A DNA stretch of 31,701 bases from a plasmid. Where the stretch lies: sequence record NZ_LT960778.1. One strand, 5' to 3'. The position numbers and the translations under genes are program-made. Under the pieces are notes generated by a model that was not told the DNA's origin, made no database searches, and worked only from the letters and a program-made list of their open reading frames with translations. Shown here piece by piece: positions 15,717-24,077 of this stretch. The stretch's first letter is position 1. Each line of letters begins with the position of its first letter.

Positions 15717-16058
15717 GGTAGATTGCAAATTTAATCCGAATTTTTGACAAATTATTCAGCATTACTTGGTAAGATGTTTGCCAGTTGAGTACTTTCAGCG
15801 GCCTTTGGTTAATTTATCCTGATAAGGTTGACATCGAGATAATTCATAAGAAATTGTTGACGGTGATCGGTTCAGCCGAACGCCCATTTGGATATTGGAC
15901 AGCCCTAGTTCACAAAAGGTTTCGATTTTAATTCGTTCGGAATAGGTTATACTAGACAAAAGATCAGCTCCTAAAAGATGGGTTTGTGGTAAACACCATT
16001 TTAAAGGAAGCTGATCTTTTTTGTCCGAACAGCGTTCGGATTAATTTTACAATCTACC
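15717..16058 (-). mobile_element. Miniature IS30-derived element of about 342 bp (MITE-like), made of an IS30 right end of about 100 bp fused to a left end of about 245 bp, in inverted orientation
   Basis: It starts with GGTAGATTGCAAATTTAATCCGAAT, the reverse complement of the right IR at 22518-22542. It ends with GTTCGGATTAATTTTACAATCTACC, the reverse complement of the left IR at 21501. Its internal sequence is about 85-95% identical to both ends of the element at 21501-22542. Confidence 0.7.
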
Positions 16059-16745
16059 GAAACATAATGAGCATCTATTAGATAAATCGTATTTCGAAAA
16101 AGTCGCTGCACTTTTTAATAAAGGACAGTCTGATCCCCTGCTAGGTGAGGCCATGTGAACATGGAATAATCTTCAGGAAGGTTTCACAGCCAATGAGCGC
16201 CTTCCAGACACGCTCGTTGATATTGCTGTTTGGCCCGTTTTTAATCGCGCTCCTCAGCTATATCGCCAAGCACCACAAATAAAAACCCGCCCTGCGTAAC
16301 TTTGGTCGGTTACAAGGCGACAATGTATTTTGTAATCTAGACCACCGCCTTTAAAGCGGCTTGTCTGAGAAGCTCCGTTCACGCAGGGCTTCTTTTTCTT
16401 CCCCGCATTATAGCATGCCTTTAATTATCCTTCGACTATTTTAAATTAACTTTCTAATAGTTCTAGGGGACGCGCGTTTTTTTGTACTAAAACAAAGGTA
16501 AAAACTAGTAGACATAATCAAAATATTTTTTGATCATGAACCGTACAGTGTGCTCTTCTCAATTGATAACAAGGCCTTTGGTGCAAACTGTGAGCTGGGT
16601 CCTGGGAGCTTGCTTCCATTCATTAAAAGTCCCGTTTATCGTCTCTTAGTGCAGCTTAAAATACCAACGGTGGGCCCATTTTAGCCACCTCGCATGAATC
16701 TTTATATTCAACACAATTTGTAGATCAATCAGATCGTCCACCGAT

Positions 16746-16775
16746 TTGCATAGACACCGCATATAGTGATACAAT
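16746..16775 (+). promoter_or_regulatory. Candidate sigma-A promoter of the nrd operon (TTGCAT, 18-nt spacer, extended -10 TGaTACAAT)
   Basis: Seen directly. It overlaps the first NrdR-box-like palindrome. Confidence 0.45.
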
Positions 16776-16800
16776 GATTGCCTAACCACTATATATAGAA
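16754..16800 (+). promoter_or_regulatory. Two tandem NrdR-box-like 16-bp palindromes, ACACCGCATATAGTGA and ACCACTATATATAGAA, starting 31 bp apart
   Basis: They match the NrdR operator consensus acaCwAtATaTwGtgt, with the right half perfect in box 1 and the left half perfect in box 2. The roughly 31-bp phasing and the overlap with the promoter are typical of NrdR regulons. Confidence 0.5.
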
Positions 16801-16848
16801 AAAGGACGATGATTAGTTACGGAAACCATAAATATTCTCTACATCAGT

Positions 16849-17286
16849 TTGAGTGGCAACACAAAATATTTTATTAGCAGACTGACAACATACTTTGAAA
16901 AAGAACGTCATGTTCGGGTTAGTTCCATTAATGTTAAAGAACACCCTGAATTCACCACTCTTGACCAGCCGTTTGTTACCTTCCTACCAGCCTTCATTAA
17001 AGGTGGTAATGGGGTTAATAACGGTTATACTGAAATATTAACTACTATTTTGGGAGATTACCTCGCGTACGAAGGCAATTACCAGCATTGCTACGGTATT
17101 ATCGGTAGCGGTAATCGTAATTTTAATAAGCAGTTTGCACTCACGGCTAAACAATATGCTAAACGCTTCGATTTTCCTTACATTACCGATTTTGAGCTAC
17201 GTGGCACCGTACACGACATTCCTCGCATTGCCGATGCCATCTTAACCTATCGCGATCAATTTTGTTTTCAAACAACAAAGGAGTAA
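16849..17286 (+). CDS. nrdI: NrdI flavodoxin-like protein of class Ib RNR. The 5' end is uncertain: the ORF track starts at TTG, but the conserved beta-1 strand NILYISLSGNT is encoded in-frame upstream from 16813 without a canonical start codon.
   Basis: SGNTKYFISRL resembles the flavodoxin-like FMN loop of NrdI, and the gene lies directly upstream of nrdE. The in-frame upstream codons after the TGA at 16810 read LVTETINILYIS. Confidence 0.8.
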   Translation: MSGNTKYFISRLTTYFEKERHVRVSSINVKEHPEFTTLDQPFVTFLPAFIKGGNGVNNGYTEILTTILGDYLAYEGNYQHCYGIIGSGNRNFNKQFALTAKQYAKRFDFPYITDFELRGTVHDIPRIADAILTYRDQFCFQTTKE

Positions 17287-17292
17287 TCCCTA

Positions 17293-22867: not shown

Positions 22868-22908
22868 CATATAAATAGCCCCCAATATCTACATTATAGA
22901 TATTGGGG
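22868..22908 (+). terminator. Strong 14-bp-stem hairpin terminator (GCCCCCAATATCTA-CATTA-TAGATATTGGGGGC followed by TATTCTTT)
   Basis: Seen directly, downstream of the 86-aa ORF. Confidence 0.6.
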
Positions 22909-22989
22909 GCTATTCTTTCAACGTTTTTGAGGGGCGATTTGTTAGTTATAGACCCTATATATTCATAGCCCCTTTCTGTTTGGTGTTAA

Positions 22990-23215
22990 AGTATTAGTCA
23001 TCGATGTCATGCACTATCTTGTTTAGCTCCGTTTTGATGGAACTGGGAATATTTTCTAAATTGAAATGATTATATATTTCTTTATCCTTAAGCATCCTTT
23101 TTTGTGCCTTATTTAATTTACACTCATTGTTACCCACTACCCATTCATCCTTTGTACGTATAAAGGGGTTTTGCGCACTTTCCTTTAACGCGTTTTGAAC
23201 ATCTTCATAAGGTAA
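22990..23215 (-). pseudogene. Start-less C-terminal gene remnant (...YEDVQNALKESAQNPFIRTKDEWVVGNNECKLNKAQKRMLKDKEIYNHFNLENIPSSIKTELNKIVHDIDD*) next to a 12-bp IS30-end remnant (GGTAGATTGTAA at 23264-23275)
   Basis: Open frame of about 75 codons with no ATG before an in-frame TGA. The IS30 terminal-repeat fragment is adjacent. Confidence 0.25.
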
Positions 23216-23379
23216 ATAAAATTCAATTGTAGATTTATTTAATTGGTAGATTGTAACGTCTCCATGTTTTCAAACGACTTAATTCTACGGGCTATAAATA
23301 ACTTAATTTGCCAGTGTATAACGTTTCAGATTAAGCTACCACTATGCTACAATAACCATATCGAAAGGAGATCAATCTA

Positions 23380-23847
23380 ATGAAATATACGAAAACCAAA
23401 GCAGTATTAAATCAACTCGTTGCCGATTTGAGCCAGATGTCAATGATTATCCATCAGACGCATTGGTACATGCGTGGACCCAACTTTTTGAAGTTGCACC
23501 CCTTGATGGATGAGTTCATGGAAGAAATTGACAGCCAACTCGATGTCATTTCTGAACGGCTGATTGCGCTTGACGGCAGTCCTTACTCGACCTTAAAAGA
23601 AATGGCCGAAAACACTAAGATTCAAGACTGGCCTGGTGAATGGGACAAAACAACCCCAGAACGCCTCGCACACTTAGTTGATGGCTATCGTTACTTGGAA
23701 GACCTTTACCAACACGGCATTGAAGTATCCGATGTTGAAAAAGACTTCAGTACCCAAGATATTTTCATTGGTCTCAAAACCGCAATTGAGAAGAAAATCT
23801 GGATGATTCAGGCAGAGCTTGGGTCGGCGCCGGAAATTGATGAATAA
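23380..23847 (+). CDS. dps: Dps-family DNA-protection/ferritin-like protein
   Basis: 155 aa. HQTHWYMRGPNFLKLHPLMDEF...D carries the Dps ferroxidase-centre His, Asp and Glu residues. RBS GAAAGGAG. Confidence 0.85.
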   Translation: MKYTKTKAVLNQLVADLSQMSMIIHQTHWYMRGPNFLKLHPLMDEFMEEIDSQLDVISERLIALDGSPYSTLKEMAENTKIQDWPGEWDKTTPERLAHLVDGYRYLEDLYQHGIEVSDVEKDFSTQDIFIGLKTAIEKKIWMIQAELGSAPEIDE

Positions 23848-23875
23848 AATAATATTAAAAAATCGGTAGGCTTAT

Positions 23876-24077
23876 GGTAGATTGTAAAATTAATCCGAAC
23901 GCTGTTCGGACAAAAAAGATCAGCTTCCTTTAAAATGGTGTTTACCACAAACCCATCTTTTAGGAGCTGATTTTTTGTCTAGTATAACCTATTCCGAACG
24001 AATTAAAATCGAAACCTTTTGTGAACTAGGGCTGTCCAATATCCAAATGGACGTTCGGATTAATTTTACAATCTACC
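23876..24077 (+). mobile_element. Miniature IS30-derived element (MITE-like, 202 bp)
   Basis: It begins GGTAGATTGTAAAATTAATCCGAAC and ends GTTCGGATTAATTTTACAATCTACC (a perfect terminal inverted repeat). Its internal 150 bp is near-identical to 21501-21650 (the IS30 left end plus the transposase 5' end). Confidence 0.75.

Follow-up and report, generated by a model that had tools for sequence, protein, structure and literature searches.

Three sequences derived from the IS30 family lie around a block of ribonucleotide reductase (nrd) and dps genes on a plasmid (NZ_LT960778.1), and the locus raises the question of whether this block moves as a unit between the elements at its ends or was assembled in another way. 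An initial annotation of the window (the whole stretch of 31,701 nucleotides that was analyzed) had described two miniature elements that bracket the block in a composite-transposon-like arrangement. We compared the window with the plasmids in PLSDB and with reference genomes. The comparison makes it probable that ISLpl1 debris provides the shared homology for a shuffling of plasmid modules and that the order found here (342-bp element, nrd, inactivated ISLpl1, orf86, dps, and 202-bp element) is one permutation of many, rather than a transposon that has moved as a whole.

ISLpl1-derived sequences in the window

Six 24-bp termini of the ISLpl1 type were located at 15717, 16058, 21501, 22542, 23876, and 24077, where shuffled sequences are expected to give none; the presence of three IS30-related sequences with common termini was thus confirmed. 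The name ISLpl1 was taken from the RefSeq annotation of homologues. ISLpl1 was first described in Lactiplantibacillus plantarum, and the window elements resemble it in the termini (GGTAGATTG...) and in the retained parts, which are 99–100% identical. The two miniatures differ from ISLpl1 in lacking a transposase, and the ORF list contained no transposase ORF in either of them.

The full-length copy (21501-22542, plus strand) was identified by alignment, split ORFs, and homologue annotation. As previously described, it is 1042 bp long with a frameshifted transposase and is inactivated. Compared with the intact 1043-bp ISLpl1 of LT960791 (28347-29389), it carries a 1-bp deletion at approximately 22178 and five substitutions, and the deletion splits the transposase ORF into 21600-22202 and 22151-22528. 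No ISLpl1-type copy in the window carries the intact DDE transposase (HTH and rve) that autonomy requires, and a comparison of the flanks gave no target duplication at any of the three copies. A clean, simple insertion of the full copy at 21501 was not supported by comparison with pSN35N-4 and CP071450; the sequence after 22542 and their IS-less continuation are not significantly similar.

The 342-bp element (15717-16058, minus strand) is, by alignment, a transposase-less internal-deletion derivative of ISLpl1 that is inverted relative to the full copy at 21501-22542. Its description as a right end joined to a left end in inverted orientation holds, and the sizes given for the two parts (approximately 100 and 245 bp) are corrected to 93 and 249 bp. 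The left-end part (15810-16058, 249 bp) is 99% identical to 21501-21749. The right-end part (15717-15809, 93 bp) belongs to a variant lineage that is approximately 85% identical to canonical ISLpl1. Its exact identity to the full copy is confined to the first 30 bp, which match 22513-22542.

The 202-bp element (23876-24077, plus strand) has two left ends, whereas ISLpl1 has a left and a right end. It aligns to IS positions 1-183, with two substitutions, followed by an inverted copy of positions 1-19, and the join shows a 7-bp microhomology (shared CGTTCGG). The perfect terminal repeats noted initially are present; they measure 26 bp instead of 25 bp, and the retained part of the IS is 183 bp instead of 150 bp.

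Two shorter remnants of the terminal repeat, placed initially at 11813 and 23264, are both real and lie at 11814-11828 and 23245-23256. The first (minus strand) retains 15 bp of the ISLpl1 left end and lies at the edge of a clpL/IS6-family segment that is missing from the sister plasmid LT960789. The second (plus strand) is a 12-bp stub (GGTAGATTGTAA). In L. plantarum CP084717, the site still carries the complete 53-bp left-end/left-end palindrome from which this stub remains, and 16 plasmids have the palindrome. A separate IS30-family element, ISLsa1, occupies 30539-31571 (plus strand) and encodes an intact 309-aa transposase (30628-31557). The subterminal motif AATTAATCCGAAC is common to ISLpl1 and ISLsa1.

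The nrd and dps modules

The cargo between the two miniatures (16059-23875) is 7,817 bp, in agreement with the 7.8 kb estimated at first. The nrd module (16059-21500, plus strand), assigned from Pfam and the pKCA54 annotation, contains a 29-aa holin-like type I toxin ORF (16196-16282), nrdI (16849-17286), nrdE (17293-19461), a divergent nrdF' (19568-20494), and nrdF (20509-21459). A strict consensus search (up to three mismatches) missed the boxes proposed for an NrdR operator; two box-like 16-mers, which are weak matches judged by eye, lie approximately 31 bp apart near 16754-16800. The borders of the nrd module coincide exactly with IS junctions in all relatives, and the block is present in L. 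plantarum pSN35N-4 with no IS on either side.

The spacer (22543-23244, plus strand) holds orf86 (22571-22831), which has no Pfam match, and a hairpin with a 20-bp stem (22873-22915). In other plasmids, the dps module usually stops on its left side at this hairpin, and in most loci the conserved module extends approximately 375 bp past the end at 23245-23256. An Rfam hit at the hairpin (22858-22930), the sole hit in a scan of 11500-25500, was a sub-threshold match to a miRNA model and was discarded as meaningless here, and a promoter and terminator scan of the region gave no excess over the shuffled expectation. The dps gene (23380-23847, plus strand; Ferritin-like DNA-protection protein in Pfam) is the almost constant neighbor of the 202-bp element.

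Occurrence and flanks of the miniature elements

The deletion junction of the 342-bp element was found in PLSDB at 18 places in 16 plasmids and was identical in all seven aligned copies, which come from three genera. The junction of the 202-bp element was found at 194 places in 169 PLSDB plasmids from at least 14 genera, and the reference genomes of 17 species gave one match each. Both miniatures are therefore found elsewhere with conserved ends and one conserved junction each, and they are not one-off deletion scars, the outcome that the initial annotation had set against its own reading. Judged from these junctions, each evidently has a single origin. The 342-bp element would have been born through an internal deletion. 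The 202-bp element would stem from a strand switch or fold-back in which CGTTCGG (positions 177-183) met its complement at left-end positions 20-26.

The 202-bp element stands directly after dps, in one orientation, in 149 of its 194 copies (approximately 77%), and it delimits a dps cassette in 138 plasmids. The window carries a rare isomer that is inverted relative to dps. The natural 183-bp end adjoins nine different flanks (in nine distinct dps-linked flank pairs), and the fused end adjoins eight. Among the seven aligned copies of the 342-bp element, five right-end flanks and four left-end flanks are combined in mixed ways. The copy in LT960789 has canonical ISLpl1 sequence across the first 60 bp or so of its right end, and the left part is diverged (89–90%) in the L. 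plantarum and L. reuteri copies and 99% canonical in the L. sakei copies. This mosaic sequence indicates that crossovers occurred within homologous sequence inside the elements.

Probable shuffling of modules through ISLpl1 debris

We regard the window as a mosaic segment of an L. sakei-type plasmid in which the cargo modules are bordered by three ISLpl1-derived sequences. The first joints between ends and flanks were probably made by ISLpl1 transposition. Thereafter, the miniatures would have served as passive module edges. The dps cassette would end downstream at the 202-bp element, and the nrd operon module would begin upstream at the left end of an ISLpl1 derivative, both being fixed edges. 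The reshuffling would have occurred mainly by homologous recombination in the 183–249 bp that the miniatures have in common, both among themselves and with the numerous full ISLpl1 copies; the exchanges may have been made by RecA or by the transposase. Deletions through short homology at the 24–26-bp terminal repeats would also have contributed. For the window, this reading predicts that exchange between the inverted repeats 15876-16058 and 23876-24058 would turn the 7.8-kb block around and that dps would be lost by exchange between the direct repeats 21493-21688 and 23868-24063.

The joints at the module borders are consistent with this shuffling. The flank on the left of nrd (GAAACATA) is joined to the 342-bp element in the window, LT960789, and LT960791, to the 202-bp element in pLs145-a, to a 13-bp stub in pKCA54, and to a full intact ISLpl1 in CP071450 and at least 10 other L. 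plantarum plasmids. The flank after nrdF is joined to the full IS in the window and to the 202-bp element in LT960789 and LT960791. Homologous exchange predicts the asymmetry observed for the 202-bp element, in which dps is kept at the short-homology fused end and varied flanks are found at the 183-bp end. Furthermore, the join of dps, the 202-bp element, and nrd in pLs145-a is expected from looping out between direct copies, and CP097180 corresponds to CP084717 without dps, a deletion between two direct left ends. The eight flanks at the fused end indicate that exchange with the full IS in the 183-bp core is insufficient; they need recombination at 24–26 bp, exchange between 202-bp copies, or real transposition.

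Modules bounded by one IS-derived sequence and reshuffled between plasmids are also a feature of IS26-type pseudo-compound transposons and translocatable units and of Acinetobacter gene cassettes between two MITE copies, and the permuted pLs145-a join resembles the re-insertion of a looped-out module. These systems differ in IS family and chemistry, and an exchange carried out by a transposase is doubtful here. The locus gives a concrete case of stress-tolerance modules (class Ib ribonucleotide reductase and Dps) shuffled among food-fermentation plasmids, in which the seams between modules are short unannotated ISLpl1 fragments. Among the homologous copies listed in searches with the full elements, none was annotated in public records. 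The 202-bp edge sequence of the dps cassette offers a landmark of use in comparing and annotating plasmids. Knowledge of IS30-family elements and MITEs in general is unchanged.

Transposition as an alternative source of the joints

The dinucleotide AT adjoins 35% of 57 distinct end flanks, as against 8.8% in the background (P approximately 4e-8). This enrichment indicates that the joints carry a transposase-like target signature, and some of them may be the miniatures' own work. It is possible, if doubtful, that the flank exchanges were made mainly by the ISLpl1 transposase acting on any ISLpl1 end through the joining of distant ends, insertion beside ends, and adjacent deletions and inversions. 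The IS30 pathways yield rearrangements of this kind (deletions, inversions, and cointegrates) and use the element's own ends as targets (PMC9333248). Besides the AT enrichment, an end that abuts a truncated end (L003) and a back-to-back rearranged pair in pKCA54 (11180-11390) agree with such an activity. However, the mosaics of the 342-bp element place the crossovers in homologous sequence and not at the termini, and the two ends of the 202-bp element are alike to a transposase, yet they behave very differently, in that the link to dps persists at the short-homology end. End-to-end (IR-IR) junctions, a sign of active IS30-type intermediates, were found in none of 29 loci.

It is unlikely that both miniatures are true MITEs whose many contexts result mainly from repeated mobilization in trans by the ISLpl1 transposase. 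The initial annotation had called them non-autonomous and MITE-like, and the structural part of this description stands. They are short (342 and 202 bp), non-coding, transposase-less deletion derivatives with intact terminal inverted repeats of the parent IS (26-bp perfect repeats in the 202-bp element and an IRL/IRR pair in the 342-bp element), and, like bacterial MITEs, each occurs as one element in many replicons and genera with one conserved junction. The eight or more distinct flanks at the fused end, the AT enrichment, the intact ISLpl1 transposase genes on sister plasmids, and further deletion derivatives of 486, 460, and 574 bp also speak for this reading.

MITE-like mobility was not supported. 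Unlike the copy-number amplification expected of MITEs, one match was found in each of the 17 reference genomes and at most two copies in the plasmids examined in full, and most copies of the 202-bp element share one site and orientation at dps. Flanks switch singly and not on both sides at once, and the mosaicism inside the 342-bp copies points to recombination within the elements. Among 28 elements with distinct flank pairs, four showed a 2-bp match, as against 5.7 expected by chance, and none showed a 3-bp match. Target duplications are equally lacking at full-length ISLpl1 copies of these plasmids, so the absence of a duplication discriminates poorly. Joined-flank searches at three sites (the 342-bp element of pKCA54, the 202-bp element of CP058680, and the 342-bp element of L. 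plantarum and L. reuteri) gave no empty site. The one candidate from the last of these searches, in L. backii, proved to be the scar of a short-homology deletion, with a 17-bp stub made at an 8-bp microhomology.

The transposase gene placed at 30637 had been proposed as a source of mobilization in trans. It is the only intact IS30-family transposase gene in the window, which has none of the ISLpl1 type; however, it belongs to ISLsa1, which shares 49% protein identity and approximately 59% DNA identity with ISLpl1, and mobilization of the miniatures by this enzyme would be a weak proposal.

No description of ISLpl1-derived miniature elements was found in the literature searched. It is distinctly unlikely that ISLpl1 yields an undescribed family of two-left-end miniatures (the 202-bp element and the 53-bp palindrome, by fold-back at GTTCGG/CCGAAC) that are still substrates of the ISLpl1 transposase and form a mobile dps cassette spread by transposition through at least 14 genera of lactic acid bacteria.

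The nrd-dps block as a proposed composite transposon

It is very improbable that 15717-24077 is a present or recent composite transposon with outer ends at 15717 and 24077 used together to move nrd and dps: the outer ends do form a proper inverted pair of ISLpl1 termini (right end at 15717, plus; left end at 24077, minus), IS30-family elements can form a circular intermediate by joining the ends of two distant copies (PMC9333248), composite transposons of this family such as Tn6330 (ISApl1-mcr-1-ISApl1) are known (PMC6349718), and in L. plantarum CP071450 two intact IS30-family copies, each with AT on its outer side, enclose nrd and four further genes. However, no target duplication surrounds the whole unit (...GACAAAT / unit / ACAACAA..., AAT versus ACA), the window has no intact ISLpl1 transposase, and the borders vary independently in relatives.

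The plasmid comparisons largely refute the composite reading. No PLSDB plasmid carries 15000-25000 in the arrangement of the window, and only two, pKCA54 and CP120513, reach 80% coverage of this region, the latter in four pieces across approximately 13 kb. The closest plasmid, pKCA54, matches 16046-28523 at 99.7% identity (the nrd-to-bacteriocin stretch) and has only the 13-bp stub at the left nrd border, with the 342-bp element approximately 13 kb away. In LT960789, the 342-bp element and nrd are followed directly by the 202-bp element and dps is elsewhere; pLs145-a has the permuted order dps, 202-bp element, nrdIEF'F, and ISLpl1; and pSN35N-4 has nrd without IS at its borders. The left outer flank of the window is joined to the 342-bp element in no PLSDB plasmid. 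The window resembles Tn6330 (PMC6349718) in having IS30-family ends around a cargo and in that loss or decay of the flanking IS leaves the cargo immobile. It differs in its miniature or frameshifted arms, in the lack of a duplication around the unit, and in that relatives do not preserve the unit as a whole. Pairs of IS-like ends need not be transposons.

Mobile insertion cassettes, such as the IS231-derived MIC231 of Bacillus cereus, carry passenger genes without a transposase between two functional ends. The dps gene of CP084717, which lies between the 53-bp left-end palindrome and the 202-bp element, resembles such a cassette. The window differs in that its upstream end is only 12 bp long, and the intact form of the cassette (53-bp palindrome, dps, and 202-bp element) is found only in relatives.

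Identity and structure of the ISLpl1 copies

A plasmid-collection search placed the window in the context of a Latilactobacillus sakei plasmid and identified the repeated element as ISLpl1 of the IS30 family. The closest record was pKCA54 (KF559312), which matched 16046-28523 at 99.7% and 28523-31701 at 99.97%. The IS30-related repeats reported at 15717, 21501, and 23876 in the initial annotation were recovered by a repeat scan of the window: 15810-16058 and 21501-21749 are complementary over 249 nt (99%), as are 15717-15746 and 22513-22542 (100%); 21493-21688 and 23868-24063 form a direct repeat (97%), and a perfect 26-bp inverted repeat consists of 23876-23901 and 24052-24077. 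The 24-bp terminus pattern occurred six times in the window and never in shuffled sequences.

The full copy (21501-22542) differs from the intact 1043-bp ISLpl1 of LT960791 (28347-29389) by five substitutions and a 1-bp deletion near 22178, which splits the transposase into two overlapping ORFs and confirms the frameshift proposed earlier. The transposase-less 342-bp derivative m1 (15717-16058) is, as first described, a right end fused to a left end in inverted orientation, although the parts measure 93 and 249 bp rather than about 100 and 245 bp. Its left part is 99% identical to canonical ISLpl1 and its right part only approximately 85%; the best full-length IS30-family copies reach only 91–93% in the right part, and exact matches to it were found only in unannotated short copies. 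The 202-bp derivative m2 (23876-24077), also transposase-less, consists of IS positions 1-183 with positions 1-19 appended as their reverse complement, and the element therefore has two left ends. The perfect terminal repeats reported for it are present, at 26 instead of 25 bp, and the element holds 183 rather than 150 bp of the IS. The two segments meet within CGTTCGG (177-183), which is complementary to positions 20-26. A 53-bp palindrome, built from IS positions 1-34 and an inverted copy of 1-19, precedes dps in L. plantarum CP084717 and occurs in 16 plasmids overall; GGTAGATTGTAA at 23245-23256 is a remnant of it. Judging from these sequences, both two-left-end forms could have come from a strand switch or fold-back at GTTCGG/CCGAAC; as an alternative, a deletion between the two GTTCGG repeats of m2 could have produced the palindrome. 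Further internal-deletion forms of ISLpl1 measured 486 bp (287 + 200), 460 bp, and 574 bp (299 + 276).

We found no description of ISLpl1 miniatures in the literature searched, and the homologous copies listed under full-element searches carried no annotation in public records. As non-autonomous IS derivatives or IS remnants, the miniatures fall into a familiar class. The presence of two left ends and the close linkage to dps are neat features; we expect no surprise for mobile-element specialists, and no long-standing question is opened.

Distribution and origin of the miniatures

A 60-bp probe across the m2 junction matched 194 places in 169 plasmids from at least 14 genera, and when one genome per species was scanned for the exact pattern, 17 species from 10 genera each had the junction once. 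The common m2 form is canonical ISLpl1 at all 183 positions, and two private substitutions are common to the window and pKCA54. The m1 junction probe matched 18 places in 16 plasmids (14 from Latilactobacillus, one from L. plantarum, and one from L. reuteri), and the deletion junction was exactly identical in all seven aligned copies. Because one conserved junction recurs in many plasmids and species, we conclude that each miniature had a single origin and then spread. The one-off deletion scars, occurring nowhere else, that the initial annotation had set against its reading do not agree with these counts.

Mobility of the miniatures

The evidence is mostly against m1 and m2 behaving as the mobile MITE-like elements first suggested. 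No amplification was observed with one genome per species or in plasmids examined in full; each reference genome carried one copy and each such plasmid at most two. The joint between the dps 3' flank and the fused end of m2 (the end made by inverted 1-19) was found in 138 plasmids at 149 places, so that approximately 77% of all m2 copies (149 of 194 places) occupy one site in one orientation. The m2 of the window and pKCA54 is a rare inverted isomer whose natural left end adjoins dps. A count over 28 elements that differ in their flank pairs, comprising m1, m2, palindrome, and full copies, gave 4 flank identities of 2 bp against 5.7 expected by permutation, and none of 3 bp. Three joined-flank searches gave no empty site. 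The single candidate, L. backii pL11992-1, was rejected as such a site, being a 17-bp stub left by deletion at an 8-bp microhomology.

Flanks are exchanged singly rather than in pairs. In the seven aligned m1 copies, five flanks at the right end occur in combination with four at the left end; the flank AAATGCAT has m1 attached in CP144756 and m2 in LT960791, and ATTTAAGA has m1 attached in pKCA54 and lies beside m2 in AP018700. The m1 copies are also internally mosaic in alignment: the first ~60 bp of the right end in LT960789 are canonical ISLpl1 (93.6% versus 85.1% identity), and the left part is diverged in the L. plantarum and L. reuteri copies (89–90%) where L. sakei copies are 99% canonical. 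This mosaicism points directly to crossovers or gene conversion within the elements. The two m2 ends, the same to a transposase, are unlike in behavior. The fused end has only 19–26 bp of homology to other copies and keeps dps, whereas the natural end (the start of IS positions 1-183) shares 183 bp with every ISLpl1 and has nine different flanks in nine distinct dps-linked flank pairs. This asymmetry is predicted by homologous exchange with full-length copies.

Other signals keep transposition possible. Eight different flanks were found at the fused m2 end, and AT adjoins 35% of 57 distinct end flanks against an 8.8% background (P ~4e-8). Duplications were likewise absent at full-length ISLpl1 copies in these plasmids. 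We read the AT signal as a trace of original transposase-made joints whose partners were shuffled later. The approximately four-fold overall enrichment at ISLpl1 termini may reflect a target-site preference. The 8 bp outside both left-end joints, 21493-21500 (AGGCTAAT) and 23868-23875 (AGGCTTAT), are nearly identical, and the former is native sequence, present without any IS in pSN35N-4.

Organization of 15717-24077

The composite-transposon-like arrangement proposed for 15717-24077, with m1 and m2 flanking nrdIEF'F-dps, did not hold: the outer flanks (...GACAAAT and ACAACAA...) show no duplication, and relatives lack the unit and differ at its borders. pKCA54 contains the whole stretch from nrd through the frameshifted copy, orf86, dps, and m2 to the bacteriocin genes, with a left-end stub of only 13 bp where nrd begins the stretch and m1 approximately 13 kb away among other genes. 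LT960789 shares the backbone 1537-11643 and m1 plus nrd (15717-21527) with the window, and carries m2 directly after nrdF, at the exact joint of the window's full copy, with dps elsewhere. The order in pLs145-a, dps-m2-nrdIEF'F-ISLpl1, is a circular permutation. In L. plantarum pSN35N-4, 16059-21500 is present and neither border carries an ISLpl1 end. In L. plantarum CP071450, the left joint carries an intact ISLpl1 and the right joint none, and a second IS30-family copy lies 4.5 kb further on, past four more genes. A full ISLpl1 occupies the left nrd joint in at least 10 L. plantarum plasmids, and no plasmid in PLSDB has m1 attached to the outer left flank seen in the window. These comparisons indicate that IS copies were added beside nrd at different times and that the dps cassette is a separate module. 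What most resembles an old composite in the window, if anything does, is m1 and the frameshifted copy around nrd alone, whose outer ends form a 30-bp perfect pair (15717-15746/22513-22542), likewise without duplication.

On its left, the dps cassette usually ends at a hairpin with a 20-bp stem (22873-22915), terminator-like on the minus strand. Related sequences of ~85–100 bp (83–88% identical) recur elsewhere in several plasmids, in annotated ones beside toxin-antitoxin or integrase genes, and the hairpin may represent a common terminator or a site of recombination.

Candidate helpers and proposed mechanism

The transposase ORF at 30637, suggested earlier as a helper in trans, belongs to ISLsa1 and not ISLpl1 (49% protein and ~59% DNA identity). 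The termini of ISLsa1 and ISLpl1 agree at 20 (left) and 19 (right) of 25 positions, subterminal AATTAATCCGAAC among them. Cross-action may be possible. The natural helper would be intact ISLpl1, which is on sister plasmids and absent from the window.

IS30-family elements transpose by copy-out-paste-in via joined ends and also insert beside their own ends (PMC9333248). We propose that the joints next to nrd and dps were initially created by ISLpl1, that deletion or fold-back derivatives arose once each, and that host recombination, between and within plasmids, thereafter used these fragments as portable homology, with occasional deletions at 24–26-bp repeats. CP097180, which is CP084717 minus dps, exemplifies such a deletion. 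In the window, the inverted pair 15876-16058/23876-24058 should permit inversion of the 7.8-kb block, and the direct pair 21493-21688/23868-24063 should permit dps loss.

Other features of the window and related plasmids

The extra R2-like gene nrdF' (19568-20494) is 34% identical to the adjacent NrdF (20509-21459) and is kept beside nrdF in all related plasmids seen. In pairwise alignment its product lacks the metal ligands expected (ESIH to KSVH, DESVH to GSALF, and an upstream Asp to Ala) and the radical tyrosine (HAKSY to HAKSC), and it may be a catalytically inactive partner subunit. A 29-aa hydrophobic ORF, MSAFQTRSLILLFGPFLIALLSYIAKHHK (16196-16282, plus strand), lies within the long nrd leader; its homologues in related plasmids are annotated as putative holin-like toxin (type I toxin), so that the nrd block seems to carry a plasmid-addiction module along with it. 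The segment 11829-15716, missing from LT960789, is bordered by a 15-bp ISLpl1 stub and m1 and contains a ClpL/ClpB-type AAA+ chaperone gene (12036-14150), an IS6-family transposase (14329-15012), and a HEPN-like fragment (15217-15642, minus strand). pKCA54 11180-11390 holds a rearranged pair of truncated 202-bp elements, positions 104-202 and then the reverse of 1-112, with the same left-end terminus on each in direct orientation; this truncated form, cut by another sequence, also occurs at two further loci (L005 and L006).

The tandem 184-bp repeat 25068-25251/25340-25523 (88%) represents two leucocin A/sakacin P-family bacteriocin genes, with immunity, PedC/BrcD, and ABC-exporter genes as neighbors (pKCA54 annotation). 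Adjacent minus-strand ORFs of 427 and 192 aa (28514-30372) match pKCA54 genes annotated as nucleotidyltransferase-domain and SLATT-domain proteins and may form a defence gene pair. In the plasmid-maintenance (partition/replication) region, 1349-1499 holds three direct copies of a 20-bp repeat, AATGTATACATGTTTACTTT, at a spacing of 62–69 bp. Related inverted copies lie at 20-113, and the repeats look like iteron or partition sites.
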